From the NCBI GenBank assembly GCA_028707125.1, contig JAQTUX010000002.1, forward strand, positions 433,872-497,871: a stretch of DNA of 64,000 bases, read 5' to 3'. The notes under the pieces are model-generated. The model was not told the origin of the DNA. It was given only the letters and a program-made list of their open reading frames with translations, and did not search any database. Every line of letters begins with the position of its first letter. The stretch's first letter is position 1. This stretch comes from Candidatus Omnitrophota bacterium. GTDB lineage: Bacteria; Omnitrophota; Gorgyraeia; Gygaellales; JAQTUX01. Made by a program: the position numbers and the translations under genes. Below, in pieces: positions 38,347 through 58,311 of this stretch.

Positions 38347-39243
38347 CTAAAATCCGAACGTCCCTCCCCGCATAAATTGCAACAATATCGGCCCGGCCAC
38401 CATGATCAAAACCATCGGCAGAATGCAAAACAACAAGGGAAACAGCAATTTGATCGGCGCCTTCAGGGCCATCTCTTCCCCGTTCTGAAAACGCCGTATG
38501 CGCATCTCTTCCGACTGTATCTTCAGCGCCTCTCCCATAGGAGAACCCATCCTGTCCGCCTGAAGCAGCGTCCTTGTGAAAGACGACATCTCTACCATGT
38601 TGACCCTGTAAGAAAGGTTCTTCAGCGCCTCCCTCCTTGTGCGGCCCACCTGCGTCTCTCTATACATCATCGCCAGCTCTTCAGTTAGAGGGCATTTCTT
38701 AAAATCCCTGATGACCCTGCCCACCGCGAGCATAAAATCAAGGCCGGCGCCGACGCACAGGTAGAGCAGGTCAATGACAAAAGGCAGGTCTCGTGATATG
38801 GACCTTTGCCTCTTTTGCACCCGGCTCCTTAACCAGAGGTCAGGAAGAATAAACCCGATCGCCAAGCCCGCCGCTATATACAGCGGCCGGTTAAAAAATA
38901 TTATGGAAACAACAATGCCTGCTAACGCGGTTGAGACAAACTTGAAGCTAAGGAACTCCAAAGGATTTAAAGGATATCCCGCCATAAGCAGTTTCCTCTC
39001 CAACCCCTTTAATTTAAGGCGCTTGCTTAACGGCCTGACAACAGGCAGGAACGCGTCAAGAAATTTGCGCAAAGGGTTCCTCTCCCTTTTTTCGGATTCA
39101 AGAGCGGCGATATCCAGGCTTTCCTGTTCATCCTCGGAAAGATACGCCTCTTCTCTTTTGGTAAAAGGAGACGACAGCTCAAAGGCGAGAAGGACTATCG
39201 CCGTAAAAATAAGGCAGTACGCGGATATCAATAATATGCCCAT
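38347..39243 (-). CDS. tadC: Tad pilus inner-membrane platform protein TadC (T2SS-F/GspF-like domain)
   Basis: 298-aa track ORF with 3+ TM segments and a GspF-like core. It lies directly downstream of tadB, and its stop sits 8 nt before the giant-ORF start. Confidence 0.8.
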   Translation of the reverse strand: MGILLISAYCLIFTAIVLLAFELSSPFTKREEAYLSEDEQESLDIAALESEKRERNPLRKFLDAFLPVVRPLSKRLKLKGLERKLLMAGYPLNPLEFLSFKFVSTALAGIVVSIIFFNRPLYIAAGLAIGFILPDLWLRSRVQKRQRSISRDLPFVIDLLYLCVGAGLDFMLAVGRVIRDFKKCPLTEELAMMYRETQVGRTRREALKNLSYRVNMVEMSSFTRTLLQADRMGSPMGEALKIQSEEMRIRRFQNGEEMALKAPIKLLFPLLFCILPMVLIMVAGPILLQFMRGGTFGF

Positions 39244-39244
39244 C

Positions 39245-40093
39245 TCACACCTCTACCTTGCTGAACTTCATAATTAAAAATATACCTATTATATAAAGCG
39301 CGGCGCCCCCGCCTAAAAGCATCTGCCCCATCTGGTCGTTAAGCATTACCTCAAAAAAGGCGTTGTTCATGGTATAGACAAAGAACCCGAAGGCGATCGG
39401 CAGAATACCCATGATCGTGCCTTGGAGCTTCCCCTGGATGCAGAGCGCGTTGACCTTGCCTATAAGCTTGTTCCTTTCCCTTATGGTAGTCACCAACTCA
39501 GAAAACGTGTCGGTAAGGTCTCCGCCGGATTCCCTGGCCACAAGTATCGCCGTATTGATCAGATCAAGCTCATCGATCGGCATCCTCTTCTTAAGATTGT
39601 TCAAGGACTGCTCAAGCGGCATACCCACGCGGTTCTCCCTCACCACCAGCCCGAACTCCTGAGATACGGGCGCGGGCATCTCTTCAACTAATGCCTCAAA
39701 TGCCTGAAGCAAGCTCAGGCCCGCCTTAAGGGAGCCCGAAAGGATCATCAAGGCGTCAACCAGCTGCTGGGAGAACATTTGCCTGCGTATCCTCTCCATC
39801 TGCTTTATAACCAAAGTAGGCACTATGAGCCCGATGAAACCCGCAGCAGCGGCAGCGAGTATATTACGGAAAACCAAATACGCCCCGAACGCCAGGACAA
39901 CGGGTATTAATACATCAAGGACCATGATCTTGTTAATGGGCAGGTTCAAAAACATCCTGTCAAGCTTAGGCGCGTATTGTTCCATGCGCCTCTGGCGCTG
40001 CCTTTCATACAGCTCTACTGCCAGCGGTATGCACTCATTAATAAGCAGCCCCACCGAACCAAAACTCAGGATAAATATGGCGAATTTGATCAT
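39245..40093 (-). CDS. tadB: Tad pilus inner-membrane platform protein TadB (T2SS-F-like)
   Basis: 282-aa track ORF with a GspF-like domain and TM segments at both ends. There is a 1-nt gap to tadC. Confidence 0.8.
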   Translation of the reverse strand: MIKFAIFILSFGSVGLLINECIPLAVELYERQRQRRMEQYAPKLDRMFLNLPINKIMVLDVLIPVVLAFGAYLVFRNILAAAAAGFIGLIVPTLVIKQMERIRRQMFSQQLVDALMILSGSLKAGLSLLQAFEALVEEMPAPVSQEFGLVVRENRVGMPLEQSLNNLKKRMPIDELDLINTAILVARESGGDLTDTFSELVTTIRERNKLIGKVNALCIQGKLQGTIMGILPIAFGFFVYTMNNAFFEVMLNDQMGQMLLGGGAALYIIGIFLIMKFSKVEV

Positions 40094-40452
40094 TCCTGCT
40101 CCTCTTGTCCGTCTTCCGGTTGTGTCGCGCTTACGTATTCTCCGTGCAACCTGTCGTAATCCTCAACCTCTGTAAATTTGTTGCTATGCATTAGTTCCGA
40201 AGATGCTTCATCCGGCCCGTCTACGTTTACAGCGTTGCCATATAACCCACTTAGAACTTCGCTGCTGATCGGTTCAGAGGCCCCAGGGTCGGTTGTCACT
40301 TCATACTGCCAGCCGAAACCGATCGCGTCTGCGGCAGTCCGCCACCTTCCCTGCATAGCGCGCTTAAGGTAGACCTGCATGGTCATGACCGCCGCGACCA
40401 TCACGATCACCAACACGCAATACTCAATCGCACTGATACCTTGGTTTTTCAT
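40090..40452 (-). CDS. Flp/TadE-type class III prepilin-like protein (MKNQG/ISAIEY…)
   Basis: Carries the G/XXXXEY prepilin-peptidase motif followed by a hydrophobic helix and 'MQVYLKRAMQGR', which is shared with the paralog array. Confidence 0.65.
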   Translation of the reverse strand: MKNQGISAIEYCVLVIVMVAAVMTMQVYLKRAMQGRWRTAADAIGFGWQYEVTTDPGASEPISSEVLSGLYGNAVNVDGPDEASSELMHSNKFTEVEDYDRLHGEYVSATQPEDGQEEQE

Positions 40453-43228
40453 AGTTCGCGTCCACCATTCTTGCCAGGTCGTTCGCCCGCCAGTAATGAT
40501 AGGCGTATGAGCGCGACCTTATGCCCTTGCCTAAAAGCCGCAGCGCCTCTATTTCGCTTAACCTGTTATCCGGGGTTATCCGCCCCAAGTCAACAGCGTC
40601 GCCGTATCTGGAATTCCAGAAACCTATGGCGTTCTTCGGCTCATCAAACCTCTGCACTTCAACCGATACCTTGCCTTCTTTATTCCTGAGATAGACGCAC
40701 CTCTTTAATCCGCCCCATTTCTTCTTCGCCTGCAGATACGGCACCTTGAACGGATACACGGTGACGTTTATAACGTGTATGCCCGCTTTGTCATCCCAGG
40801 CATACAGGGCGTTGGGAGTAAGATTCCATTTATCCTGCAACGCCTCTACCTCACCGTTGAACAACTCAATATCATCCCTGAACTGCTGGATCGCCTTTAT
40901 AAAAGCGGTCATACTTCCATCCTGCCCCTGCTGCAACCTTGAAGGCCTGTCGGATGCGGGGTCAACGTCTTTATCGTATATTTCTTCGTTGATCTCATCT
41001 ATTATTGCCTCTTTGATCACCTTGTCCGCGTCCCAGTTCCCATACCTGAAAATCCCATAGTAATTTTGATTTTGGATTGAATCAGGCAATGCATCCCTCA
41101 TCGCGTCCCTTATTCCTGTTAACTTCAACTCCCATGCCTCTAATGACTGCAGCCACCCTTTCTCAACAACCGGTGTCTCACCTTCAAGCAATTCGCCCTC
41201 TCCGGTGCACCAGTTATCAGGAACCCAGCTTATCTCGTCATACCAGTTGTCATAATTAATCTCTGCTGAGCTTTGGTTAGGGTGGCCGGCAAGCGGCTTA
41301 TATCTAGTTCCTATTTCGGGTTCAAGCCGTGCGATTTCACCTTCCGCCAGGCCTTCGGGAATATCAAGCAAATCATACAATTGGCTCTGCCACATTCCAA
41401 AAGTCGCCAGCAGGTCCTTATCGCTGATCGTCATCTGCCCCTGGACAGGCCGGTAATCCCTCTGGAGACGGCCATTAACATATTGATAACCCCAGAAATA
41501 CCTGTAGCCGTAGCCGGCCGGTATATATGCGCCGCCAAAGAATGACTGCATATAGTCCTCAAATGCCTCGGCACCCCATTTTAACAAATCAACCTGGTCA
41601 ACCTTATTGTATTCGCTGCCGCTGTCAGAGCGGTATTTTGCATCAAAATCTATCCAGGTCGCTGTCTCGTCCTCATCGATAAGCTGCGCTCGCAAAACAG
41701 ACAGGATTGCCGAAAGATCGCTGCCGAACACCGCCGACATCGCGCCCTGTTCCAGGTCTAAACCTATATTTAAACGCACTTCTGTCTGGCTTACCTGCTC
41801 AGCCCAACCGTTTTCTGTCAATTTTCTGGAAATGCTGTCCCACTCAAGCCCGGCCTGCTCAACTAGATCTCGTGTAACTATCCCCGCGTCGGGATAAAGT
41901 TCGCTGAAGGCGCGCTCTTCCGTCGCGTTACCGGGCACATAAAACGGAAGGGTTTCTCCCGTAAGAACCAGATTATTTGCCGGTAGAGTAATATTAAAGT
42001 CGTAGGAATGATAATAAGTATAGCTGCCTCTGGAGCTGCCCCACTGCCAGCTCCAGACAGGCGCGTTGATATCTCTTGCCAGCTCTTGCATATACCGCCA
42101 AATATCACTGCTGCTGACAGTAATTGTATCGGCGTGGTCCCTGAACAACACGCGCAATAATTCGTTAAGTTTTATATCCGTATCGTTAAATGTTTCTATC
42201 AAATCGCTTCTATAGATGCTGGAACTTATATTCTGATATGAATACTTGCCGCCGGACCTGTCATAACCATAGAATTCCAGGTGATCGCTTATGCGGAAAT
42301 TTCTTAACACAAATAATTTGGCAAGAAGACGTTTGATATTTGCTTCATCCGCCGCCTCTCCAGCAATATCAGGCCACTCCTCTTCATACAGGACCTGATA
42401 TTGCCCGTCTTCATCCCGCTCCAGTTCTATCCTGAAGGAATTCTGCATGAATTTCTGCTCAGCGTCCCAAAACGCCTTCATCTTAAGCTTAAATTGCGCG
42501 ATCTTGGCCTCTAAATCCTTATTATAGCCGTCCACGTTCTTCAGCCGCTCCACATACCATCTGGAAAACCGGCCGATCTTATCGCCTTTAATACCAAGGG
42601 GTTTCTCCCTGATATCGCGGCGGCGCTCTCTGCATACCGGCTCTTGGCCGGGATTAGGAGCGTCATAATAATAACAGCCCACCTCGCCGTCCTCATCCAG
42701 GTCAAACTCATCAGCCACCTTAACCGGGTCATCAACTATCTTGAACAGGGCGGTCTGTATCGCCCCTTCCCTGAATTTCATCTGCTCGGTCATCTTGGCA
42801 AACTGCCGGTTTACAGCCCGGACCATTGCCGGCTCGATCAGAATTGCCTGTGCCGCGACTCCTATGGTCGCTAAAACCGCTCCTACCTGGGCGCCGGTAA
42901 GCGCCGCGCCTGTTAAACCTAAAAAGCCGCCGAATCCAACAGCCATGAGAAAGGCCGCAGCCACTATTGAAAAGAAGAAGCCCCAGTTGAACTTGCACTT
43001 ATGGTCTCTGTCGCCTATAAATTTATGAGAAAGATAATGGGCAAAACTGCCCAGGTTATTGGCTAAATTAAATGACGCGGCGTCTGCCGCCTGCTCTACG
43101 GAAAGCTTCCTCTGTGAAAGGTGGCCTATATTGATCGCCACGGCAGCAAACAGTATCAGCGCCGCCAATAAAAGCGTTATCAGCGTGGCGATCTGGCCCA
43201 TCTTCTTTCTTTTGCCGCAGAGCATCAT
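40424..43228 (-). CDS. TadG-like large pilus-associated protein (N-terminal Tad/TadG membrane-anchor motif)
   Basis: 934 aa. The N-terminal TM segment is followed by 'HLSQRKLSVEQAADAASFNLANN', resembling the TadG N-terminal domain. The remainder is unassigned. Confidence 0.55.
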   Translation of the reverse strand: MMLCGKRKKMGQIATLITLLLAALILFAAVAINIGHLSQRKLSVEQAADAASFNLANNLGSFAHYLSHKFIGDRDHKCKFNWGFFFSIVAAAFLMAVGFGGFLGLTGAALTGAQVGAVLATIGVAAQAILIEPAMVRAVNRQFAKMTEQMKFREGAIQTALFKIVDDPVKVADEFDLDEDGEVGCYYYDAPNPGQEPVCRERRRDIREKPLGIKGDKIGRFSRWYVERLKNVDGYNKDLEAKIAQFKLKMKAFWDAEQKFMQNSFRIELERDEDGQYQVLYEEEWPDIAGEAADEANIKRLLAKLFVLRNFRISDHLEFYGYDRSGGKYSYQNISSSIYRSDLIETFNDTDIKLNELLRVLFRDHADTITVSSSDIWRYMQELARDINAPVWSWQWGSSRGSYTYYHSYDFNITLPANNLVLTGETLPFYVPGNATEERAFSELYPDAGIVTRDLVEQAGLEWDSISRKLTENGWAEQVSQTEVRLNIGLDLEQGAMSAVFGSDLSAILSVLRAQLIDEDETATWIDFDAKYRSDSGSEYNKVDQVDLLKWGAEAFEDYMQSFFGGAYIPAGYGYRYFWGYQYVNGRLQRDYRPVQGQMTISDKDLLATFGMWQSQLYDLLDIPEGLAEGEIARLEPEIGTRYKPLAGHPNQSSAEINYDNWYDEISWVPDNWCTGEGELLEGETPVVEKGWLQSLEAWELKLTGIRDAMRDALPDSIQNQNYYGIFRYGNWDADKVIKEAIIDEINEEIYDKDVDPASDRPSRLQQGQDGSMTAFIKAIQQFRDDIELFNGEVEALQDKWNLTPNALYAWDDKAGIHVINVTVYPFKVPYLQAKKKWGGLKRCVYLRNKEGKVSVEVQRFDEPKNAIGFWNSRYGDAVDLGRITPDNRLSEIEALRLLGKGIRSRSYAYHYWRANDLARMVDANYEKPRYQCD

Positions 43229-43256
43229 TTTATCTCACCTTCCATCTTTATGATCC

Positions 43257-43604
43257 TTAATCCCTGTGTAACGCGGGATTTTCCCGGTCAAAAACATAAA
43301 GCGGCTTTGCTGTATAAAATCCTGTTGACCAGGGGTATAATCTCTGGCGCCTTGTACCTCTCCCTAATTCTTCATCATCTCTTTTCTCGTTCTCTACTGT
43401 CGTCATGTTAAAAATCCTGCCCGACTGATAGTCGGTATGCCTGTATTTGAAATTATTGCTAAACCAGAGCAGGATATTGAACGTCCCCAAAAGCAGAACC
43501 ACAAAGGCGATAAAGGCAACCGTTGATTCTATGGTTACCTGCCCCGTACCTTTACCACGGACCTTCAACCTTATGCCCTGTTGCCCATCCCTTATCTTTA
43601 TCAT
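43257..43604 (-). CDS. TadE-like pseudopilin (…GKGTGQVTIESTVAFIAFVVLLLG…); start probably at internal Met ~43604
   Basis: Class III signal-peptide-like N-terminus. The track ORF 43257..43643 overlaps the upstream gene, so the likely true start is the internal Met. Confidence 0.45.
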   Translation of the reverse strand: MIKIRDGQQGIRLKVRGKGTGQVTIESTVAFIAFVVLLLGTFNILLWFSNNFKYRHTDYQSGRIFNMTTVENEKRDDEELGRGTRRQRLYPWSTGFYTAKPLYVFDRENPALHRD

Positions 43605-44859
43605 AACGTTTCTCCGTAAACACAAGTAATCCAAAACCCTCATTGCCCTCTATATTATCGTTGGCATTGTTTCTCGCCTCTCTCAACTTTAAGTCCAGAT
43701 TACTGGGGGTAACATTATTAGTTGCCCAAAGCACTTGAAAGAAAATCATCAAGTGGCTGAGGTACTCTGGATCGGCGATGACAGCCGCCTGATAATCGCT
43801 TACCAAAACAATAAATGCTTTAACGTTGGAAAAATCGCCTTCTCCGGTATTGGTTTCAGCTATATCTATGCTTGGATTCTCTGTAAATGTGTCCGGGGAT
43901 ATATTATGAAGCCCAAGGGGATAGATAAAATGTTCTTTCCCGTTTATCTTTACCAGGTTATTTACCAAGGCAAGCGTTTCATGTTTTAATATAAATGAAC
44001 CGCTGTTTATATTCCTTTGTATCCAATAAGAATTATATCTTTCCGGCTCATTTTTGGAATCTTGCCAGACCTCACCTTCCTGGCTGTCTATAACCCTTAT
44101 ATAATCAACCACCTCGCGGCTGCCCATGCCGCTTCCCTCTCTCCTGTTCTCTACGCTCAACACGCTTTCCTCTTCGCCGTCGCCGTCCAGGTCAAGGCTG
44201 TCGCCTTTAGAAATCTTGTCTACGGCAACATCTTCCCACTCCCAGCTTCTAAGGCGGTCGCCATTTTCAGCAACCCAACGCATCTGTCTGACATTTACGC
44301 GCGAATCCACGGCGTTGTCTTTATCCTCAAAGAACACCGGTTTACCGTCGGCGTTCTTTTTGGGGTCAATATCTTTTCTCTTCCTGGGCATAGCCGACAA
44401 AACAGTCCCTTCCGGCGACTCTAAATGTCCGTCCCTTACATATATCGTCCGGAACCCCGCGGTTGTAAAGGTGTATCTTTTATCGCCGAAATCATAAATT
44501 ACCCTGGGCAAGTCCTCTTGTTTGTCCCAGGTAATGTTGTAAAACAACTTCTGCGTCCAGACGGCAGAATTGAACTGCACAAAAGGCGTACGCTCCGCGT
44601 ATCCGCTCAAACCCAGGGGGTTGCCCGGGTCAGGAACCGGCAGCTGCGTGAATCTGGCGTAGGTTATGGTCCTCGCGTCATTCCGGGCATCGTATGCCTC
44701 TTTATACGACTGCCTGAATACCTGCATAGACAGGCCATGGTTATAGTTAAGCGTCGTCCCGTATTTAACAAAAAACCCTATCACCAGAAACAGCGCCGTG
44801 CCGAATAACGCCAGCTCTGTCAAGGCCTGCCCGGATTTTTTAATTACCGAAATACTCAT
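43552..44859 (-). CDS. Long (435 aa) TadE/TadF-like pseudopilin (…KSGQALTELALFGTALFLVIG…)
   Basis: N-terminal G-Q-x-x-x-E-(L/F) followed by a hydrophobic helix. It is unusually long for TadE/F. Confidence 0.55.
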   Translation of the reverse strand: MSISVIKKSGQALTELALFGTALFLVIGFFVKYGTTLNYNHGLSMQVFRQSYKEAYDARNDARTITYARFTQLPVPDPGNPLGLSGYAERTPFVQFNSAVWTQKLFYNITWDKQEDLPRVIYDFGDKRYTFTTAGFRTIYVRDGHLESPEGTVLSAMPRKRKDIDPKKNADGKPVFFEDKDNAVDSRVNVRQMRWVAENGDRLRSWEWEDVAVDKISKGDSLDLDGDGEEESVLSVENRREGSGMGSREVVDYIRVIDSQEGEVWQDSKNEPERYNSYWIQRNINSGSFILKHETLALVNNLVKINGKEHFIYPLGLHNISPDTFTENPSIDIAETNTGEGDFSNVKAFIVLVSDYQAAVIADPEYLSHLMIFFQVLWATNNVTPSNLDLKLREARNNANDNIEGNEGFGLLVFTEKRYDKDKGWATGHKVEGPW

Positions 44860-45178
44860 ATTTGGATTGCCTCACCTTCTCATCTCCTTTGCGCAATGTT
44901 ACGCTGCTAACCTGCTCTGTAGTGCTTCTATTGCGACCATCCGCCTGGTTCCGCGGATTAATAATACTTGATACAGACACCGAGCCGGTTTCCAGATACG
45001 TATACATACCGGAGTAAGTGTTCCCCGGAGAATACTGCTGGCCTATGTCGTCCGCGGCAAGCCGCATCCTGCCCTGGATCGCGCGCTTAACATAGGTCTG
45101 CATGGCGATCAAGGCGCCGACAATAACGATCACCAGCACGCATATCTCTAACGAGGACTGGCCTGATCTACGCATCAT
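44840..45178 (-). CDS. Flp/TadE-type prepilin-like paralog (…MMRRSGQSSLEICVLVIVIVGALIAMQTYVKRAIQGR…)
   Basis: Track ORF 44840..45217. The likely start is the internal Met. G/QSSLE + hydrophobic helix + conserved 'AMQTYVKRAIQGR'. C-terminal 'KYEYFGN'. Confidence 0.6.
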   Translation of the reverse strand: MMRRSGQSSLEICVLVIVIVGALIAMQTYVKRAIQGRMRLAADDIGQQYSPGNTYSGMYTYLETGSVSVSSIINPRNQADGRNRSTTEQVSSVTLRKGDEKVRQSKYEYFGN

Positions 45179-45188
45179 CTTTCCTTCC

Positions 45189-45650
45189 TTATTCAACCGG
45201 CTGAGTTGCCTCAGCATAAGATTTTGTCCACGTTACTTCTCCGCCTATCGGCTCTGCGCCATCCGGAAGATCGGAATGATCCGAAGGGCCAATCTCCAGC
45301 ACGGTAGCGAATTCCTCATTTACAGCCGGACTGTCAACGCCGTATTGCTCATCTTTTTCGTTGCCGGCCATGAATTCGGTATCTTTAGTGTTGCTTAAAC
45401 TATACGACTCTGCGGCCGATCTTGATATCTCACCCAGCATCAGGTCACGCTCAGGGACGTACTGGTCACGCTCAATATCAAACTCGGGGCCTAATTTTAA
45501 AATACTATTAGCCGAGTTAGCTATGCCGCCCTGGATCGCGCGCTTGACATAGGTCTGCATAGCCACAAGCGCTGCCCCCACAAGAGCGAATACGATAGCG
45601 TATTCGCTCAAGCTCTGGGCTTTAGTCCTCCTGATAGAACCTCCGGCCAT
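45189..45650 (-). CDS. Flp/TadE-type prepilin-like paralog (A/QSLSEYAIV variant)
   Basis: 153 aa with the same N-terminal architecture and an acidic C-terminal extension. Confidence 0.55.
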   Translation of the reverse strand: MAGGSIRRTKAQSLSEYAIVFALVGAALVAMQTYVKRAIQGGIANSANSILKLGPEFDIERDQYVPERDLMLGEISRSAAESYSLSNTKDTEFMAGNEKDEQYGVDSPAVNEEFATVLEIGPSDHSDLPDGAEPIGGEVTWTKSYAEATQPVE

Positions 45651-45692
45651 AGCTGAACACTCCCTGTGAAGTTAAAACTGCCATAAAACACT

Positions 45693-46169
45693 TTAATTGC
45701 TAACGGCCTGTATCCATCGATTATGACTATCAATGGTCACATTACTCGTTGGGCTCGAGGCCTCAGGTATCGTGTCTTCGTCTGAAACAAAACCACCGTA
45801 ATCCGTTGTTGCCGGCTCCGGCTCTTCGTCGCTATCCGGATCCTGTCCCCAGAACTCATGTTTTTGCTTGGCAACGATCTCCCATCCTTTACGGTTCTGC
45901 TGCTGCGTATCGATCTGTGAACCTGACCGTTCAAATTCTCCACCACTCAATTGCACCCAGTCCCTGCTAACTGTGTAAGAATCGGTCTGATGAGCGCTCT
46001 TGGTATAGCCCGGTGAATACTGCTCGCCCATATCATCGGAAGCGCTTCTCAGACGGCCCTGGTAGCCGCGCTTGATGAACGTCTGCATGGCTATGAGGGC
46101 GCCGATGATGACTACTATAAGTATGGCGAATTCCAACGTGGATTGGCCTTTGTTCTCTTTAATAAACAT
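45693..46169 (-). CDS. Flp/TadE-type prepilin-like paralog (MFIKENKG/QSTLEFAIL…)
   Basis: Track ORF 45693..46283. The likely start is the internal Met at ~46169 with an AAGGAGGTGA RBS. The N-terminal half is identical to the next paralog. Confidence 0.6.
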   Translation of the reverse strand: MFIKENKGQSTLEFAILIVVIIGALIAMQTFIKRGYQGRLRSASDDMGEQYSPGYTKSAHQTDSYTVSRDWVQLSGGEFERSGSQIDTQQQNRKGWEIVAKQKHEFWGQDPDSDEEPEPATTDYGGFVSDEDTIPEASSPTSNVTIDSHNRWIQAVSN

Positions 46170-46193
46170 TTCTTCTATCACCTCCTTACTATT
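46008..46193. repeat. 186-bp perfect direct repeat, copy 1 (pilin paralog 5' end + RBS)
   Basis: Identical to 46526-46710 by eye ('cccggtgaatactgctcgcccatatcatcggaagcgcttctcag…cctccttactatt'). Confidence 0.8.
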
Positions 46194-46686
46194 GAGGAAT
46201 TGGCGACGTCTCTGCAGTAGCCAAATTCGTATTGAATTCTGTTGAATATCTACCACTATGCACGGCTGCCTGATCTGCGGCACTCACGCCTTCTAACGCG
46301 TCGGGTGTCTCTCCGCCAGTAATCGTGTGTTTCCGACCTTCGTTTATCTCTTCCGGAACTTCACCCCAGAATTCAAAATTTGACTTTGCCACTGACTCCT
46401 TATTGATCCTGTCTTGATGCTGGTTCTTTATCTCGGAAATAGAAATTATTTTGTTATTAGCGTCGGCCTTTACCCTCTCCTCGTTATGCGCAAAACTTAT
46501 ATTATACTCATCGGATTGCGTGTATCCCGGTGAATACTGCTCGCCCATATCATCGGAAGCGCTTCTCAGACGGCCCTGGTAGCCGCGCTTGATGAACGTC
46601 TGCATGGCTATGAGGGCGCCGATGATGACTACTATAAGTATGGCGAATTCCAACGTGGATTGGCCTTTGTTCTCTTTAATAAACAT
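46189..46686 (-). CDS. Flp/TadE-type prepilin-like paralog (MFIKENKG/QSTLEFAIL…)
   Basis: Track ORF 46189..46716. Internal Met start with the same RBS. Its 5' 186 bp is a perfect copy of the downstream paralog. Confidence 0.6.
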   Translation of the reverse strand: MFIKENKGQSTLEFAILIVVIIGALIAMQTFIKRGYQGRLRSASDDMGEQYSPGYTQSDEYNISFAHNEERVKADANNKIISISEIKNQHQDRINKESVAKSNFEFWGEVPEEINEGRKHTITGGETPDALEGVSAADQAAVHSGRYSTEFNTNLATAETSPIPQ

Positions 46687-46710
46687 TTCTTCTATCACCT
46701 CCTTACTATT
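46526..46710. repeat. 186-bp perfect direct repeat, copy 2
   Basis: See copy 1. Confidence 0.8.
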
Positions 46711-47083
46711 GGTCAACCGGAGCGTGGAATTTCTGCGCCCCCTTTCTCGCTATCTCCTCTCTGTTAATATTTCTCTCAACCTCGCCGCCTTCCTTTACTT
46801 TAGTATCTACCTCGTCGGCTCTACCGGTAGCAAACCTTGATTCAAGATAATACGGCTCATATTGCCCTGTCTGAAAACTCAATTCTGTGGTATTGCCAAC
46901 ATCGGTAAGCGTTATTCCCGTCTCTGTTCCGGCTATTGTCGGCTGAAGCTGCGTAGATTGCTCTATCCTGCCCTGCAGGCCTCTTTTTACGTATGTCTGC
47001 ATGGCGATCGCGGCAGCTACTACCAGCCCGATAAGAACCGCGTATTCCGCGGTATTCTGCCCCTCTCTATTCCGTAGTAACAT
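46706..47083 (-). CDS. Flp/TadE-type prepilin-like paralog (MLLRNREG/QNTAEYAVL…)
   Basis: 125 aa. RBS GGGGGTG 7 nt upstream. Confidence 0.65.
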   Translation of the reverse strand: MLLRNREGQNTAEYAVLIGLVVAAAIAMQTYVKRGLQGRIEQSTQLQPTIAGTETGITLTDVGNTTELSFQTGQYEPYYLESRFATGRADEVDTKVKEGGEVERNINREEIARKGAQKFHAPVDQ

Positions 47084-47120
47084 TTATTTTCACCCCCTTT
47101 AAGCGAATGAATGACTCTGA

Positions 47121-47582
47121 CTATGTGCCGTTAATGGTCCGATTAGCTGTTGCCCCGGGTTTTTCCTGCGTCTGGTATCCTATTCTCTTTGTCTTAGTGT
47201 CGGATTCAGCGCGTAAAACAGCGCCTCCCAGACCTACATGTTCATGTTCAGGCGTTCTGCTGGCGCTTACGAAATCCGAACGAAGATATTCTGGTTCATA
47301 CTGATGCCCGCTTGCGAACAGGTTCTCAGCACCGATAAAAGGCACCGTAGCATTTATGGTCGTATTTGTCGTTGTCGTATTGTTTACGGGATTGGTCGTC
47401 CGCAATACACCCGCAAGACTAAAAGTGCTTACTGTATGCGGCCTTGCGTCTACCGCGTCTTTCACCTTCCCTTGTATGCTTCTCTTAACCAATGTCTGCA
47501 TGCCAATCGCGGCAGCTACTACCAGCCCTATCAGGACGGCGTATTCCGCGGTATTCTGCCCCTTTCTATTCCGTAGTAACAT
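47121..47582 (-). CDS. Flp/TadE-type prepilin-like paralog (MLLRNRKG/QNTAEYAVL…), Thr/Asn-rich C-terminus
   Basis: 153 aa. The N-terminus and 5' leader are near-identical to 46706..47083. Confidence 0.65.
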   Translation of the reverse strand: MLLRNRKGQNTAEYAVLIGLVVAAAIGMQTLVKRSIQGKVKDAVDARPHTVSTFSLAGVLRTTNPVNNTTTTNTTINATVPFIGAENLFASGHQYEPEYLRSDFVSASRTPEHEHVGLGGAVLRAESDTKTKRIGYQTQEKPGATANRTINGT

Positions 47583-47619
47583 TTATTTTCACCCCCTTTA
47601 AGCGAATGAATGACTCTGA

Positions 47620-47847
47620 CTATGTAGTGCCGTTTACTGTTGGCCTTTCTCCTTCTAAAGGCGTATATGTTGCCCTGTAGCTCTCGGTCTTGTCTTGCAT
47701 TTCTCCCGCAACATGCGCTACACCCAACTCAAGATGCTTCTTCATAAGAGCGCTGATGACCACTACCGCAGCCACAATGGCTGTGAATACTATCACGTAT
47801 TCCATTATTGACTGGCCCTTCTTCGCGTTGAACTTCATTTCTTTCAC
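47620..47847 (-). CDS. Short Flp-type prepilin (MKEMKFNAKKG/QSIMEYVIVF…)
   Basis: 75 aa, classic Flp size and motif. Confidence 0.65.
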   Translation of the reverse strand: MKEMKFNAKKGQSIMEYVIVFTAIVAAVVVISALMKKHLELGVAHVAGEMQDKTESYRATYTPLEGERPTVNGTT

Positions 47848-47896
47848 CTCCTTCTTTTAACAAAAAATCCCGGCAAAATTACCGGGATAAATCCTG

Positions 47897-48061
47897 TCAG
47901 GTATTCAGCGGCTCGGCGTTGATCTGATTCTCCAATGCCTTCAGATTCGCCTGCACAGCCCGCTGCACATAAACGCGCATAGCCACAAACGCGCTGACCA
48001 CAATAATTATTAAGACAGCATACTCAAGTGAGGCCTGACCCCTATGCCATCTATTTACCAT
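47897..48061 (-). CDS. Short Flp-type prepilin (MVNRWHRG/QASLEYAVL…); start at internal Met
   Basis: Track ORF 47897..48175 overlaps the upstream gene. The internal Met gives a 54-aa prepilin. Confidence 0.5.
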   Translation of the reverse strand: MVNRWHRGQASLEYAVLIIIVVSAFVAMRVYVQRAVQANLKALENQINAEPLNT

Positions 48062-48063
48062 CG

Positions 48064-48282
48064 CTACCTCCGGATTGACTCTGCTATGCCGCTGAAAAAA
48101 CCTCTCAATCCAAACGCGCTTTCGCTTTTCAAGTAAGCCGCGAACATCACAAAGGTCACCACCGCGAAGGCACAAAAGATCAAAAAATATTCTACTGTTG
48201 CTTGGCCTTTTTTAATTCTTAAGCACTTTGTAAAAGTTTTGTTTAAGTGCCTAATAAAAAAACCGAAAGTTTCTTTCATCAT
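48064..48282 (-). CDS. Flp-type prepilin-like ORF (…RIKKG/QATVEYFLIF…) with uncertain start
   Basis: Has the G/XXXXEY motif, but its first 10 codons coincide with a hairpin + T-run terminator-like structure. Confidence 0.45.
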   Translation of the reverse strand: MMKETFGFFIRHLNKTFTKCLRIKKGQATVEYFLIFCAFAVVTFVMFAAYLKSESAFGLRGFFSGIAESIRR

Positions 48283-48300
48283 TTCCTTTCGGCTTTCGGT
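48250..48300 (-). terminator. Hairpin (CCGAAAG…CTTTCGG / GAAAG-AAA-CTTTC) followed by T7 run on minus strand
   Basis: The minus strand reads '…ccgaaagccgaaaggaaatgatgaaagaaactttcggtttttttatt'. It lies ~170 nt downstream of the 532-aa gene stop and inside the first codons of pilin ORF 48064..48282. Confidence 0.4.
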
Positions 48301-48466
48301 AGCCCGGCCTACCTTGATAACAATGTTGTCAAGGTACCGTGGCTTTGCGCATCCCGGCTTACGCCGGGAATTGCCCTTTTCGCTGCCGTTCTACTTGCAC
48401 TTAAAATATACCATATATACTACTATATGTCAAGCGCAAAACTGCCTGAAATTGAAAGCGGTTACA

Positions 48467-50065
48467 TTATTGTGAGAACCAGAAACGGCGGCCGGTTTTA
48501 TCAACGCTATTTAGTTCGTTGGCGCGCTTAGAAAGATAGGCAATATCGTTGGTATGGCCTTGCGGCTGGAATTTGATGAGGTTGTATTTATCCTGTTGGA
48601 TCGATCTGCCGCGTAGTTTGAAAACCCGCTCCGTTATATCGTTTAAGGCAATCTTATCATAACCTATTGGCAATAAATGTGTTGCGCAATACTTTATCAG
48701 GCCCCAGCGCCAGGCCTTAAGCACGCTCTCAAAGGATAGCGCCTCAGGTATGTATCCCCTCTCCCCCTGCTTGCGCGTTTCCTCCGTCGAGAAAACATTC
48801 TTCAGGCCGAATGAGAAAAACTCGATCCTCTTGTTGAAATCATCCAGAGCATCCTTGAAATCAGGCCATTTGTTTAAATACGCCCGGGCAACGTCCTCTT
48901 TGCTTAACGACTCTTTATCCATATCTGTCAGCAACACAAGATAATACCTGTCCCGCGAGGCCTTCTTAATGAAAATGGCCCTTAACGTAACTAATTGATT
49001 TAGCTTATGTTGCGTGAATTGAGCCGTCCCTTCCGACAATACGATCTCCTCAAGATCGGGTCCTGGCCGGAAAAAAGACCCTTCTTTTTTATCCTCTAAG
49101 GCGATTTCGGAGGCGTATTGCCCTTCAGGCAGCCCTATTATAAAGTCGGTTTTAAGGCGCGGTATCTCGCAGGCGCTGCTTATCTCCTCTCTGCCAGAGG
49201 TGAAGAACGATATGTTTTTAACGTAGAGATGCGAGGGGAACTTACAGCAGCCGATGAAATCAAGCAGGCCTTGCGGCATCTTGCTCGCTAAGGGGGCGAT
49301 AAAGATAACAAACGGCTCTGTCTTGTTTATGAAGGTATTTTTTATATAAATCTCTGTATTGTAATATGTTGCGTAAAAATCTGACGGGATATTACCATAA
49401 GGCCAGATCGTCCTCGCGCTTGCGTCAATATATATTGAAGAGTCGTCTGATAACACAAATTTCAAATACTGCACCTCTCGGATACGCGGCATAAGCTCTT
49501 TGTATAACCTGAAATTGATTGCTGTATTATATTGCAATTGTTCAAGATAAGATACCAACCCCCCATAATCTATGCCGGCTCCTGTAAGGCGCTCAAACGT
49601 CTCTTTTATATAACTATTTGATTCGTAATCGTTTACGTCACCAAATAGGGAGATGTACAATAAAGTTTCCACGAGCGCCCTGATGTTTCCAGGGGCATTT
49701 TCGGCAGTGGTTTCTTGCAATAAATTCGTTATATAATCAACCCCTCCCAAAGTGTTTTCAATTGCCTTGAGCAAATATAGGCCCATATTCAATTCGCCTT
49801 CTTGAGGGAGTTTTGGGGGCTCCGGTTTTATCTCTGGCCTTATCTCAGGAAGGGGCGGCACAGGCGCCCCCTTCCTGCGCCTGCCAACAGGGCTGCTTAG
49901 ATTTAATTGTTTGATTATATTATTTACTGTGGACTTTGATATTGTCTTATTGAATCTCTGAGAAAGCGTAGCGGATATTTTCCTCGCGCTCAGGCCGGGG
50001 TTTTGCTTCTTAAGATCAGAAATGCTCTGTTTGAGCTCTTCAGTTACTTTGTAGATAACGCCCAT
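48467..50065 (-). CDS. Hypothetical 532-aa protein with N-terminal HTH-like segment
   Basis: Track ORF. The N-terminal '…LSARKISATLSQRFNKTISKSTVNNIIKQ…' resembles a helix-turn-helix, followed by a Pro/Lys-rich linker and a large unassigned domain. Confidence 0.55.
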   Translation of the reverse strand: MGVIYKVTEELKQSISDLKKQNPGLSARKISATLSQRFNKTISKSTVNNIIKQLNLSSPVGRRRKGAPVPPLPEIRPEIKPEPPKLPQEGELNMGLYLLKAIENTLGGVDYITNLLQETTAENAPGNIRALVETLLYISLFGDVNDYESNSYIKETFERLTGAGIDYGGLVSYLEQLQYNTAINFRLYKELMPRIREVQYLKFVLSDDSSIYIDASARTIWPYGNIPSDFYATYYNTEIYIKNTFINKTEPFVIFIAPLASKMPQGLLDFIGCCKFPSHLYVKNISFFTSGREEISSACEIPRLKTDFIIGLPEGQYASEIALEDKKEGSFFRPGPDLEEIVLSEGTAQFTQHKLNQLVTLRAIFIKKASRDRYYLVLLTDMDKESLSKEDVARAYLNKWPDFKDALDDFNKRIEFFSFGLKNVFSTEETRKQGERGYIPEALSFESVLKAWRWGLIKYCATHLLPIGYDKIALNDITERVFKLRGRSIQQDKYNLIKFQPQGHTNDIAYLSKRANELNSVDKTGRRFWFSQ

Positions 50066-50077
50066 TTAGTCAGCTCA

Positions 50078-50180
50078 AAAATGTCCAATCTAATCTTTAA
50101 GTCAGATTGGACATTTATGCCTCCACATCAAGTATAATACAAGAGTTAACTAAAGTCAAGTTAATTCAGATTGGACAATT
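50078..50180 (-). promoter_or_regulatory. Sigma70-like promoter (-35 TTGACT / 17 nt / -10 TATACT on minus strand) with palindromic operator ATGTCCAATCT-N12-AGATTGGACAT and a third half-site
   Basis: Plus-strand IR arms sit at 50081-50091 and 50104-50114, and the third half-site 'cagattggacaa' at 50167-50178. The -35 is the revcomp of 50154-50159 and the -10 the revcomp of 50131-50136. The element sits between the DUF192 stop and the start of the HTH-protein gene. Confidence 0.5.
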
Positions 50181-50190
50181 ATAGGAGAGT

Positions 50191-50532
50191 TTACTGAAAG
50201 GTAATGACATCCCCTGTTTCAGTGCGGGTCTGGCGAGCAGTTCCGGAAGGAAGTTCTATGCAGTAATAAGCCCCAAGATAAATGCCAGAAAGGCGCCAGG
50301 GCTGGAGATCATGCAAAACCTTGATAACCCTGCCCTGCCTTGTGGTAAAGACAGCGTCAATGCTGAATTTCATAAAAAAGGTGTGAATGGAGGTGCAGGC
50401 GGCTATGACCAGGCCCTCTCCCTGATGAAGGGACGTCTTTCCCAAAAGCCCCTTCATGCGCGAAACCAGGGTATCGGCTAAGGCGGCGTTTTCTGCCAGA
50501 ACCGTGCCCTTACCCTGGTTGATTATTTTCAT
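50191..50532 (-). CDS. DUF192-family protein (commonly encoded in tad loci)
   Basis: 113-aa track ORF whose sequence pattern (…GLLGK…GEGLVI…CTSIHTFFMKFSIDAVF…) is typical of DUF192/COG1430. Confidence 0.7.
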   Translation of the reverse strand: MKIINQGKGTVLAENAALADTLVSRMKGLLGKTSLHQGEGLVIAACTSIHTFFMKFSIDAVFTTRQGRVIKVLHDLQPWRLSGIYLGAYYCIELPSGTARQTRTETGDVITFQ

Positions 50533-52691: not shown

Positions 52692-52700
52692 AGTTATTCT

Positions 52701-55201: not shown

Positions 55202-55206
55202 AAATA

Positions 55207-58308: not shown

Positions 58309-58311
58309 GAT

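Follow-up and report, generated by a model that had tools for sequence, protein, structure and literature searches.

The pilin array and its Tad-like locus

In the window, the whole 64-kb stretch of DNA that was analyzed, ORF calls and an N-terminal alignment reveal ten minus-strand ORFs with a prepilin-type N-terminus, p1–p10. Genes p1–p9 are contiguous and p10 lies apart; because three larger genes, of 934, 128 and 435 aa, fill positions 40424–44859, the layout is nine plus one and not the ten consecutive genes of the first-pass annotation, which was right about number and strand. The sizes of 72–165 aa with long C-termini given there hold for p4–p10 (112–165 aa), whereas p1–p3 are of ordinary Flp size (54–75 aa) and bear no long tails. 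Pilin gene sizes vary with the choice of start codon; the NCBI products for five of the ten genes measure 112, 120, 153, 158 and 165 aa. The window belongs to a Candidatus Omnitrophica MAG, in which the region has the locus tags PHR44_08095–08130. The pilin genes and their cleavage-site motifs are as follows.

48064–48282, minus: p1, short Flp-sized prepilin, 72 aa, long 25-aa leader, GQATVEY, without the MQTYVKR motif
47897–48061, minus: p2, short Flp-sized prepilin, 54 aa, GQASLEY, variant core AMRVYVQRAVQAN, candidate major pilin
47620–47847, minus: p3, short prepilin, 75 aa, GQSIMEY, without the core motif
47121–47582, minus: p4, extended pilin, 153 aa, GQNTAEY, QYEP type, N/T-rich insert NNTTTTNTTINAT; tandem duplicate of p5
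46706–47083, minus: p5, extended pilin, 125 aa, GQNTAEY, AMQTYVKRGLQGR and QYEPYY
46189–46686, minus: p6, extended pilin, 165 aa, GQSTLEF, DDMGEQYSPG...FEFWG type, acidic tail; tandem duplicate of p7
45693–46169, minus: p7, extended pilin, 158 aa, GQSTLEF, subfamily of p6
45189–45650, minus: p8, extended pilin, 153 aa, AQSLSEY, AMQTYVKRAIQGG, acidic tail
44840–45178, minus: p9, extended pilin, 112 aa, GQSSLEI, AMQTYVKRAIQGR...DDIGQQYSPG...YEYFGN
40090–40452, minus: p10, pilin, 120 aa, classical Flp-like GISAIEY site, MQVYLKRAMQGRWRTAADAIGFGWQYE; candidate adapter pilin

The start of p2 overlaps the p1 stop, and the mature p2 product would measure about 46 aa if cleavage falls after Gly. In the window, p10 stands immediately before TadB. 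The remainder of the locus comprises the genes below.

55207–56127, minus: Rotamase_2 peptidyl-prolyl isomerase (PPIase), first gene of the conserved locus (Pfam PF13145, E = 3e-17)
54308–55201, minus: RcpC/CpaB (Pfam PF16976, E = 3e-23)
52701–54311, minus: RcpA/CpaC-like secretin with C-terminal TonB_C (Pfam Secretin 7e-46, T2SS-T3SS_pil_N, TonB_C 6e-16)
50532–52691, minus: TadZ/CpaE-like ParA/MinD domain fused to a TadA/CpaF-type ATPase, 719 aa (Pfam T2SSE 3e-64 and AAA_31/CbiA)
50191–50532, minus: DUF192 protein, 113 aa (Pfam PF02643, E = 3e-18), found in 50 loci
48467–50065, minus: conserved 532-aa protein with N-terminal HTH (HTH matches only sub-threshold), candidate regulator
43552–44859, minus: TadE-like large minor pilin, 435 aa, GQALTEL and hydrophobic helix, candidate tip subunit
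43257–43643, minus: small TadE-like minor pilin, 128 aa, GQVTIES and hydrophobic helix, candidate tip subunit
40424–43228, minus: TadG-like large protein, 934 aa, N-terminal hydrophobic helix, candidate tip backbone
39245–40093, minus: TadB-like platform protein, T2SSF (Pfam PF00482, E = 1e-16)
38347–39243, minus: TadC-like platform protein, T2SSF (Pfam PF00482, E = 3e-13)
2–38341, minus: giant ORF, at least 12,780 codons, a stop-free frame directly downstream of TadC that runs past the window edge

Judged by sequence, the surrounding genes form a complete, bona fide Tad-like locus, and RcpC, the secretin, the TadZ–TadA fusion (best NCBIfam match TadA family TIGR03819, 337 bits vs a cutoff of 373) and the two T2SSF proteins bear out the earlier placement of the pilins in such a locus. 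West-Roberts et al. 2023 (bioRxiv 10.1101/2023.11.21.568195) count the PPIase among the components of the locus. Among the larger pilin-like proteins, the 435-aa protein has no match to Pfam TadE and the 934-aa protein scores 18.7 bits with Pfam PF13400 (Tad), below the cutoff of 22.3. No Peptidase_A24 prepilin peptidase gene was found within the window, nor within ±10 kb of 81 related loci.

The giant ORF, which carries an N-terminal hydrophobic segment and a Peptidase_C39 domain (E = 5e-9), lies behind TadC on the same strand, as do members of its family in at least 35 related loci, and in the account of West-Roberts et al. 2023 (bioRxiv 10.1101/2023.11.21.568195) the locus encodes a secretion system, has gspD/E/F homologues and stands ahead of giant genes phylum-wide. 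These observations speak for a short periplasmic pseudopilus acting as a piston that drives the giant protein, or its C39-released fragments, through the secretin, with the paralogues as GspG-K-like major and minor pseudopilins and not as subunits of an external adhesive fiber. The secretin finds its best NCBIfam score with GspD (152 bits, below cutoff), and T2SS systems employ about five distinct pseudopilins. We nevertheless regard this reading as rather unlikely: the ATPase, TadZ-like domain, RcpC, split TadB/TadC platform and Flp-sized pilins are a Tad and not a T2SS signature, the AF2 models of the pilins lack a GspG-type globular domain, the giant protein carries a hydrophobic segment of its own at the N-terminus and lacks a prepilin signal, and the Tad-derived machines studied so far build external pili, such as the Kil pilus (Herrou et al. 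2025, PMC12075869).

Prepilin motifs, profile matches and predicted folds

In all ten genes a Glu occupies position +5 after the G/A cleavage position and a hydrophobic stretch of about 20 residues follows the cleavage site, so that the N-terminal alignment upholds the processing motif and hydrophobic helix first described. A profile built from family members matches nine of the ten (E = 4e-9 to 2e-37; p3 4e-9, p4 2e-34, p5 2e-37, p8 8e-19, p9 7e-25, p10 7e-16), while p1 is picked up through its motif and sub-threshold Pfam matches alone (Class_IIIsignal 16.9 bits, Flp_Fap 11.7 bits). Of the two Pfam models that the first-pass annotation proposed to search, Flp_Fap matches only below threshold (best 14.6 bits, p10, vs a cutoff of 32.2) and TadE matches none of the ten pilin genes; Class_IIIsignal is likewise passed by none (best 21.3 bits, p2, vs 23.7), and no curated Pfam or NCBIfam pilin model exceeds its threshold for any of them. 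The sub-threshold Flp_Fap and Class_IIIsignal matches sit exactly on the prepilin segment. Taken with the motif and the Tad-like locus, they agree with the original description of these genes as Flp/class III prepilin-like, and the failure of all ten to reach the Flp_Fap threshold agrees with its remark that this is not the standard Flp signature.

The segment MQT(Y/F)(V/I)KR..QG(R/K/G), said to be shared by most members, occurs in seven genes (p4–p10) and as an MQTYVKR variant in the p2 core; in the DNA it is also visible as a 50-nt repeat family with seven copies. The motif (F/Y)E(F/Y)(W/F)G, said to end several members, is carried by three of the ten (p6, p7 and p9) and is conserved across their subfamily. 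AF2 models of two subfamilies display a confident N-terminal helix of 37–40 residues, followed by a β-hairpin of moderate confidence in one (pLDDT 80–88) and poor confidence in the other (<50). Thus p5 is modeled as helix 9–45, a loop and a β-hairpin 80–96/102–119 (mean pLDDT 74), and p9 as a confident helix 9–48 with two long strands of low confidence.

The extended pilins depart from Flp pilins in having 100–150 mature residues and a C-terminal part predicted to be non-helical, and some or all of them might be class III signal-peptide substrates, membrane-anchored or released, that serve in surface binding or as accessories to the giant protein or to carbohydrate uptake. The model here would be the Sulfolobus bindosome, whose sugar-binding proteins bear class III signals and whose ATPase, BasE, is weakly similar to that of the window (136 bits vs a cutoff of 1000); carbohydrate import systems have been reported downstream of giant genes (West-Roberts et al. 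2023, bioRxiv 10.1101/2023.11.21.568195). We find a non-filament role scarcely plausible, as a binding-protein fold would need larger and more complex C-terminal parts than these, the basic MQTYVKR..QGR collar directly prolongs the pilin helix and recurs in variant form in Flp-sized p2, and the extended genes are embedded between other pilin genes in fixed order.

Conservation across Omnitrophota and local duplication

A total of 125 genome loci were matched and 80 of these compared, including the Tad locus of Velamenicoccus archaeovorus LiM. These 80 loci hold 3–12 pilin family members each (mode 8), so that ten pilin genes are normal for Omnitrophota and the rarity implied by a comparison with the usual one to three flp genes does not stand. 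The gene order is conserved: two to four short pilins, three to seven extended pilins, a TadE-like, a small TadE-like and a TadG-like gene, one final pilin and TadB/C. At least one QYEP-type extended pilin (p5 type) is present in all 53 complete loci, p1 belongs to a cluster found in 79 loci, and p10 to one of 60 members in 57 loci that lies behind the TadG-like gap in every locus that covers this part. The 532-aa HTH protein, adjoining the array upstream, keeps that position in 67 of 80 loci, the 435-aa TadE-like family lies directly behind the small pilins in 62–63 loci, and the 934-aa TadG-like family is found in 25; the position of the 128-aa gene is taken in other loci by similar genes of families f13/D.

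The closest relative, locus L081, displays one-to-one positional orthology with the window: p1 corresponds to q157 (53% identical over the N-terminus), p3 to q71 (61%), p8 to q137 (49%), p9 to q115 (56%), p10 to q99 (49%), the 128-aa TadE-like gene to q127 (58%) and the HTH protein to its ortholog (58%), while p2 and q59 share 89% identity, the highest of the whole locus (TadZA, 81%). Over 1263 locus pairs, median identity among the pilin classes is highest in short pilins that carry the core (54.5%); extended pilins reach 46% vs 49% for TadB/C and 46% for the secretin, the 435-aa TadE-like protein evolves fast (31%), and the TadG-like protein fastest of all components (28%).

Two lineage-specific tandem duplications with homogenized 5′ ends can be read from the sequence of the window. 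Genes p4 and p5 have a 156-nt 5′ tract in common (90% identity) and both map to the single L081 gene q124 (38% and 54% identity, respectively); p6 and p7, which both map to q163, are 99–100% identical over a 192-nt 5′ segment including the RBS, after which similarity falls sharply, leaving small islands of conservation, the EFWG codons among them. Such mosaics, near-identical at the 5′ end and diverged at the 3′ end, are what gene conversion or recombination between copies would yield, and together with duplicated units in other loci (such as IHIH) and the very divergent C-terminal halves behind conserved N-termini they speak for a diversified repertoire of alternative major pilins, differentially expressed or recombined for host or prey range or for phage or immune evasion. 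The paralogous pilins PilA1-6 of Haloferax volcanii, whose hydrophobic domain is identical while their tails differ, are a precedent. This reading, close to the antigenic or host-range variation suggested initially, is nonetheless very unlikely, given that paralogue types and order are kept in 80 loci with one-to-one orthologues in L081 and that the divergence rate of extended pilins does not exceed that of TadB/C or the secretin. Every copy possesses an RBS and a start codon of its own, so none is a silent cassette; the genes scanned showed no recombinase, and the promoter flanks hold no invertible element or inverted repeat. Two signals flank the first pilins.

48405–48433, minus: best sigma-70-like promoter match, TTGACA-17-TATATT with TG, 11/12 matches, upstream of p1
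47867–47888, minus: best intrinsic-terminator-like hairpin, 9-bp stem and T-tract, directly 3′ of p2

The promoter is no more than a consensus match, the best in 39900–50300; sites there are, in all, as numerous as shuffled sequence would give. The terminator-like hairpin after p2 carries little weight because, in a stricter scan, just some 10 of the 80 related loci have a comparable hairpin behind their early short pilins.

A proposed fixed pilin set and its likeness to the Kil pilus

We favor, with a probability of roughly 60%, the reading that the ten genes encode the prepilins of a phylum-wide Tad-type (type IVc, Flp) pilus machine whose locus lies immediately upstream of a giant surface-protein gene, the paralogues forming a fixed, ordered set with divided labor. 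Of the possibilities raised at first, one major pilin accompanied by many minor ones is what synteny supports best. A prepilin peptidase encoded elsewhere would remove the short basic leader at G|Q..E, after which the hydrophobic N-terminal helix of each pilin would be extracted from the inner membrane, subunits being polymerized by the TadZ–TadA ATPase and the TadB/TadC platform and the fiber leaving through the RcpA-type secretin. The paralogues would not be interchangeable variants. Whereas the sequences demonstrate homology, membership in the locus, the kept order and relative conservation, we infer cleavage, polymerization and each individual role, taking the Kil Tad pilus of Myxococcus as the model for the roles. 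The main fiber subunit would be a short, highly conserved Flp of the p2 type, p2 itself being a candidate on the basis of its conservation and one promoter/terminator consensus match. The 435/128/934-aa TadE/TadE/TadG-like trio may form the fast-evolving tip, with p10, encoded right behind it, as putative tip adapter. The extended pilins p4–p9 may act as accessory or alternative fiber subunits; their architecture of helix, basic MQTYVKR..QGR collar, QYEP or QYSP loop, predicted β-hairpin and variable or acidic tail would expose variable surfaces of non-helical structure on the fiber exterior, where they would probably touch prey or host cells.

The array is the standard pilin set of the Tad-type locus upstream of giant genes throughout Omnitrophota, as already noted in the literature, and the small class III signal-peptide genes of such loci have been mentioned before (West-Roberts et al. 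2023, bioRxiv 10.1101/2023.11.21.568195). For these reasons only the long-tailed pilins seem new: with 5306 representatives at E ≤ 0.001 and no passing Pfam or NCBIfam model, the extended Flp-like pilins look like a new, large uncharacterized family, whose members are predicted to place a long β-hairpin behind an N-terminal helix. Seymour et al. 2023 (PMC10066038) state that V. archaeovorus expresses its Tad complex when co-cultured with Methanosaeta. In the experimentally studied predatory Tad pilus of Myxococcus, the major Flp is KilP, KilK and KilO are adapter Flps, one of the two being encoded in a tip cluster, and the tip consists of TadE/F/G-like trimers (Herrou et al. 2025, PMC12075869). 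It is to this arrangement of major Flp, adapter Flps and TadE/F/G-like tip that the proposed Omnitrophota roles are here likened.

The ten prepilin genes and their family

Between positions 40090 and 48282 of the window, ten minus-strand open reading frames carry a prepilin-type N-terminus. Numbered along the direction of transcription, they are:

48064-48282, minus strand: p1, 72 aa
47897-48061, minus strand: p2, 54 aa
47620-47847, minus strand: p3, 75 aa
47121-47582, minus strand: p4, 153 aa
46706-47083, minus strand: p5, 125 aa
46189-46686, minus strand: p6, 165 aa
45693-46169, minus strand: p7, 158 aa
45189-45650, minus strand: p8, 153 aa
44840-45178, minus strand: p9, 112 aa
40090-40452, minus strand: p10, 120 aa

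The proteins are identical to NCBI entries PHR44_08095-08130 of a Candidatus Omnitrophica MAG. Their aligned N-termini comprise a short basic leader, the residue at the cleavage position, four residues, a Glu and some 20 hydrophobic residues, with Glu at +5 in all ten, Gly at −1 in nine (Ala in p8) and Tyr or Phe at +6 in nine (Ile in p9). The array thus carries the Flp processing signature (basic leader, Gly −1, Glu +5, Y/F, helix of about 20 residues), with deviations in p8 and p9. After the helix, seven genes (p4–p10) encode a basic segment, MQ(T/V)(Y/F/L)(V/I/L)KR..QG(R/K/G), which we call the collar and which at the DNA level is a 50-nt repeat family of seven copies with 66-82% identity; p2 has a variant form of it, AMRVYVQRAVQAN. 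The motif (F/Y/H)E(F/Y)(W/F)G occurs in p6, p7 and p9, and a profile built from family members matches nine of the ten window pilins (E = 4e-9 to 2e-37). The ten-gene prepilin array proposed by the first-pass annotation is therefore real, the N-terminal motif (10/10), the shared segments and the profile matches (9/10) taking it far beyond chance. The genes had also been called consecutive, and this they are not: three larger genes, encoding a TadE-like protein of 435 aa, a small TadE-like protein of 128 aa and a TadG-like protein of 934 aa (the trio), separate p9 from p10, and two of these three have a G|Q...E site as well.

Three features of the array region are recorded here in their own right. 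p4 contains an Asn/Thr-rich insert, NPVNNTTTTNTTINAT, with many N-x-T sequons, and genes for a TPR protein and a family-2 glycosyltransferase lie just beyond the upstream end of the Tad locus, in divergent orientation (56314-59073, plus strand); pilin glycosylation is conceivable. A 5′ untranslated region of about 120 nt (48283-48404, minus strand) is predicted from a promoter-like site to the p1 start codon, and within it a GC-rich stem-loop, CCCGGC-GTAA-GCCGGG, was spotted by eye.

Flp/Fap pilins are processed by a dedicated A24-family prepilin peptidase and polymerise into an extracellular filament. The two Pfam models named in the first-pass annotation were run on the ten genes: PF04964 (Flp_Fap) stayed below its gathering score of 32.2 bits for all of them (p10 14.6, p5 13.5 and p1 11.7 bits, no match at all for the other seven), and PF07811 (TadE) gave no match at E ≤ 1. 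The gathering score of PF04021 (Class_IIIsignal), 23.7, was likewise missed (p2 21.3, p1 16.9, p4 15.0, p7 13.7 and p6 13.6 bits), the NCBIfam model classIII_w_PIP, whose cutoff is 65, gave about 13-14 bits, and DUF4244 is also among the sub-threshold Pfam/NCBIfam matches. In the trio, the 435-aa and 128-aa proteins have no PF07811 match at E ≤ 0.01, and the sole match of the 934-aa protein, to PF13400 (Tad), scores 18.7 bits where the cutoff is 22.3. The earlier claim that the ten are not standard Flp pilins stands in so far as all fall below the Flp_Fap threshold, and gives way at p1–p3 (54-75 aa), which alone lie within the 50-80 aa of an entirely α-helical Flp prepilin; p4–p10 measure 112-165 aa. 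Class III signal-peptide substrates that build no filament would be another reading of such proteins, one that we hold very improbable. Weighing the processing motif, the hydrophobic helix and the tad-locus setting against the missed thresholds, we can best place the ten proteins among Flp-like pilins, as a divergent branch that is in part extended.

An A24-family prepilin peptidase gene (TadV/CpaA/FppA) was found neither in the 64-kb window nor within ±10 kb of 81 loci, and searching the window genes and the conserved locus families gave no candidate. A scan of all loci for GxGD[VI]K returned one match, in locus L045 from another genome, which was rejected as repetitive, non-coding-looking sequence.

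Structure prediction was applied to two of the extended pilins (p4–p9, in which the N-terminal helix and collar are followed by a long tail), and the AlphaFold2 models, being monomers of putative filament subunits, are to be read with caution. In p5, modelled with 46 homologues (mean pLDDT 74), a helix at 9-45 spans the hydrophobic segment and the collar and is followed by a low-confidence loop with QYEPYY and a long β-hairpin (80-96/102-119, pLDDT about 80-88). For p9, which belongs to the DDIGEQYSPG...EYWG subfamily, the model has a confident helix at 9-48 and two long strands with pLDDT below 50. The helix is thus confident over the processing-site and hydrophobic segment in both models, and both depart from the all-helical Flp in their predicted long β strands. 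Given the difference in pLDDT between the p5 hairpin and the p9 strands, the helix-plus-hairpin fold is moderately supported by modelling, and for the p5-type subfamily only. A PDB sequence search with the family profile returned nothing significant (top match geopilin domain 1, E = 0.46).

The Tad-like locus and its conservation in Omnitrophota

The phylum Omnitrophota is widespread, has not been cultivated and includes many ultra-small members; a predatory or parasitic life is assumed for it, and what its genomes reveal about the attack on hosts comes mainly from a Tad-like locus and the giant genes adjacent to it. In the window, a single co-directional minus-strand locus runs from a PPIase gene through p1–p10 to TadB/TadC and then into a giant frame:

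55207-56127, minus strand: Rotamase_2 PPIase, first gene of the locus
54308-55201, minus strand: RcpC/CpaB
52701-54311, minus strand: secretin with C-terminal TonB_C domain (Pfam E = 6e-16)
50532-52691, minus strand: ParA/MinD (TadZ-like) domain fused to a TadA/CpaF-type ATPase, 719 aa
50191-50532, minus strand: DUF192 (COG1430), between the ATPase and HTH genes
48467-50065, minus strand: HTH protein, 532 aa, between DUF192 and p1
38347-40093, minus strand: TadB and TadC, two T2SSF proteins, after p10
2-38341, minus strand: giant stop-free frame of at least 12,780 codons, directly downstream of TadC and running past the left window edge

Omnitrophota giant genes generally follow a conserved secretion locus of more than 10 subunits (West-Roberts et al. 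2023, bioRxiv 10.1101/2023.11.21.568195), an observation on giant-gene flanks that a 2026 preprint repeats, and in Velamenicoccus archaeovorus Seymour et al. 2023 (PMC10066038) describe the same locus as a complete Tad complex and state that it is expressed when the bacterium grows together with its host, Methanosaeta. The window contains the components of that published locus (secretin, GspE-type ATPase, GspF-type platforms, RcpC, Rotamase_2 PPIase and small class III genes), in the published order, upstream of and co-directional with a giant gene, and in an Omnitrophota genome; the TadA/CpaF ATPase, TadB, TadC, RcpA secretin, RcpC and TadZ all lie on the same strand within 38347-56127. The V. 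archaeovorus LiM locus (L036) was retrieved directly by the pilin profile and matches the window in layout, with its pilin orthologues at 8953-11572 and 15812-16051 in L036 coordinates. Since the published Tad/secretion locus includes small class III signal-peptide genes, the array was known in outline; at locus level we see no difference from the published examples, to which the window adds one more, and the frame at 2-38341 is a typical Omnitrophota giant gene (cf. West-Roberts 2023). A Peptidase_C39 domain (E = 5e-9) accompanies a hydrophobic segment at the N-terminus of its product. We considered whether it might be a giant pilin and rejected this, the N-terminal segment being an ordinary hydrophobic one lacking a G/XXXXE site. 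The adjoining giant gene would also suit a T2SS-like pseudopilus that exports the giant protein, a reading we find doubtful; the top NCBIfam match of the fused ATPase is the TadA family. We conclude that the array is the ordinary pilin complement of the published Omnitrophota Tad-like locus tied to giant genes.

The motif AMQ[TV]Y[VL]KR[GSA], searched for in a single genome of each species, led to 125 confirmed loci, 80 of which were fetched. These are labelled Omnitrophota/Omnitrophica (49), Candidatus Velamenicoccus, Kappaea or Gygaella (3), 'Planctomycet*' (20) and other or generic (8, several on short contigs). The 20 read 'uncultured Planctomycetia/Planctomycetales', and Dehalococcoidia, Eubacteriales and Pseudomonadota labels occur as well; L008, L011, L015, L025, L030 and L035 are among the loci that bear labels of these kinds. 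The Planctomycete-labelled loci examined in detail share the locus layout, and the array of L035 is laid out like that of V. archaeovorus; all four kinds of label, or the bins behind them, are probably wrong.

Related loci share a layout that opens with 2-4 pilins of Flp size (about 50-70 aa) and continues with 3-7 extended ones (about 100-130 aa), the TadE-like, small TadE-like and TadG-like genes (or an alternative gene pair), one more short pilin and TadB/TadC, with a giant gene next in at least 35 loci. Profile-positive pilin genes number 3-12 per locus (mode 8, 80 loci), and a permissive count gives a median of 10 in the 53 loci with both the HTH gene and TadB/C. Ten pilins, which had been taken as unusual against the one to three flp genes of typical tad loci, are thus the norm of the phylum. 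Strings of paralogue clusters are clade-specific and pass almost unchanged from locus to locus (AGGAIHJEBD~C and AFTALKFNBD~C are two such strings). In a set of 1.84 billion representatives of clusters at 50% identity, the family counts 5306 members at E ≤ 0.001 and 2351 at E ≤ 1e-10, typically 100-130 aa long and essentially devoid of precomputed Pfam domains; they are annotated as hypothetical because current Pfam/NCBIfam models miss them.

The HTH gene belongs to this conserved setting. The sole recognisable part of its 532-aa product is an N-terminal transposase-like HTH, and we therefore considered a transposase inserted into the locus; with the family at the same place, the DUF192–pilin junction, in 67 of the 80 related loci, that was rejected and the gene is a conserved locus component. 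Its product is a possible regulator. An inverted repeat just 5′ of its start (50076-50091/50104-50119, 16 nt, 94% complementary) could be a putative operator. Antibody heavy-chain matches of the protein (PDB phmmer, E ~5e-4) are weak and were judged spurious. In L045 (3883-7323) the homologue reaches 1146 aa owing to an insertion of about 600 aa, E/K/A/R-rich and coiled-coil-like, between the HTH and the conserved C-terminal domain. Other members of the locus have features of their own: TonB_C on a Tad secretin is an unusual fusion for the RcpA/CpaC type, and the ortholog in L081, a related locus discussed below, is built alike; the fusion of a TadZ/CpaE-like domain with TadA/CpaF (TadZA) recurs in 54 related loci (median length 719 aa); and a DUF192 gene lies between the ATPase and HTH genes in 50 of 80, making it a conserved locus member.

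Our literature search found no published description of the pilin family signature, the paralogue order, the extended architecture or the HTH gene. New relative to the literature found are accordingly the large unannotated extended Flp-like family defined here, the fixed order in which five or more types of paralogue follow one another, the HTH gene conserved 5′ of the array and, in the window lineage, recent duplications with homogenised 5′ ends.

Duplication and divergence of the pilin genes

L081, a contig from a JGI metagenome, is the closest relative, with a TadZA 81% identical to that of the window. It holds the same locus with 7 + 1 pilins and the first part of a giant gene (at least 4018 codons), and its pilins are 1:1 orthologous with those of the window by position.

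Identity of window pilins to their L081 orthologues
p2, q59: 89% (most conserved gene of the locus)
p3, q71: 61%
p9, q115: 56%
p8, q137: 49%
p10, q99: 49%

The remaining extended pilins pair up: p4 (38%) and p5 (54%) map to a single L081 gene, and p6 (46%) and p7 (55%) to another single gene. Two recent tandem duplications have therefore occurred in the window lineage, which has 10 pilins against 8 in L081. The duplicates are direct repeats at their 5′ ends. For p7/p6 (46003-46194/46520-46711), 192 nt covering the RBS and the first ~50 codons are 99-100% identical, and past this tract similarity drops sharply save for short conserved islands such as the EFWG codons; for p5/p4 (46971-47126/47470-47625), 156 nt covering the RBS and the first 40-55 codons are 90% identical, and here too the remainder of each gene is highly diverged. 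Such a mosaic suggests 5′ ends homogenised by gene conversion and, less probably, an assembly artefact.

Evolutionary rates were compared over 1263 locus pairs with TadZA 60-85% identical, as the median identity of reciprocal best hits.

Median identity by gene class
Short pilins with core (collar) motif: 54.5%
RcpC: 51%
TadB/C: 49%
Short pilins without core motif: 47.6%
Extended pilins: 46%
Post-TadG pilin: 46%
Secretin: 46%
TadE-like: 31%
TadG-like: 28%

Judged by these identities, the hypervariable proteins are the tip-like TadE- and TadG-like ones and not the extended pilins. This bears on the suggestion of the first-pass annotation that the array, with its many diverged paralogues, is a pilin repertoire for antigenic or host-range variation. 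The synteny of paralogue types and the 1:1 orthology with L081 speak against it, as does the ordinary rate of the extended pilins (median equal to that of the secretin), and so does the lack of a switching element: inverted repeats, sought as signs of an invertible promoter or of phase variation, are absent from the array. We consider a repertoire quite unlikely and retain the ordinary pilin complement.

Proposed roles and comparison with known systems

The Kil Tad pilus of the predator Myxococcus xanthus is Tad-derived (Seef et al. 2021, PMC8460266; Herrou et al. 2025, PMC12075869). Its major Flp is KilP (97 aa, with a G/XXXXE site), its adapter Flps are KilK and KilO, of which one has its gene inside a tip cluster, and its tips are TadE/F/G-like heterotrimers with variable distal domains whose gene families are confined to Myxococcota (Herrou et al. 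2025, PMC12075869). Kil is the best experimentally grounded analogue for mapping roles onto the window. The window resembles it in having several pilin classes: the trio, one Flp-like gene (p10) right after it, and further Flp-like genes. By this analogy the trio, fast evolving and with a TadG-like largest member, would form the tip, and p10, encoded directly after it at a position conserved in 57 loci, may be the adapter. Its length of 120 aa is unusual; the family median, taken on trimmed, near-mature sequence, is 66 aa. The trio, with its pilin-like N-termini and the conserved order of trio then p10, is a candidate counterpart of KilL/M/N. The likeliest major subunit would be p2, which has the size of an Flp and is conserved more strongly than any other gene of the locus; it lies behind the best promoter-like site (48405-48433) and directly 5′ of the best terminator-like hairpin, although few related loci (about 10 of 80) have a terminator at this point, behind the early short pilins. 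The six extended pilins may serve as accessory subunits of the fibre or as alternative ones, exposing surfaces that are not helical.

A bolder proposal is that the extended pilins, with helix, basic collar and long hairpin, are a new class of filament subunit that co-assembles with the short Flp pilins in a fibre coupled to the giant protein. We regard this as unlikely. Such a fibre would be a heteropolymeric or sheathed Tad fibre, mechanistically tied to getting the giant protein (at least 12,780 aa) exported, anchored or delivered onto prey cells, and, if true, an undescribed kind of Tad-derived predation or secretion machine. The array alone leaves the general view of type IV filaments unchanged, the locus type and its small class III genes being already published; what it does provide is an ordered set of at least five pilin types, one of them a large unannotated extended Flp-like family, as concrete targets for proteomics, cryo-ET and AF-multimer modelling.

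Set against Kil, whose single major pilin and two adapter Flps are α-helical throughout, the window has six extended pilins with a predicted β-hairpin and no Kil counterpart. Kil tip genes are scattered over four clusters, whereas the window has a single trio inside the locus; its tip-like genes, as the fastest evolving, parallel the variable Kil tips. With canonical Flp pilins (PF04964; Aggregatibacter flp-1/flp-2, Caulobacter PilA) the array shares G|XXXXE(Y/F), the hydrophobic α1N helix, the tad-locus position and, in p1–p3, size; a plain Flp fibre is about 4.5 nm in diameter. It differs in the seven pilins of 112-165 aa with basic collar, QYEP/QYSP loop and non-helical C-terminal parts, in having ten copies per locus instead of one to three, and in a locus without tadV. 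Archaeal class III signal-peptide pilins (Methanococcus Epd, Haloferax PilA1-6) also come as multiple paralogues with a conserved N-terminus and divergent C-termini, and the mature start Q-x-(S/T)-x-E...L of the window pilins resembles the archaeal QXSXEXXXL (PF04021), Class_IIIsignal being their commonest weak Pfam match.
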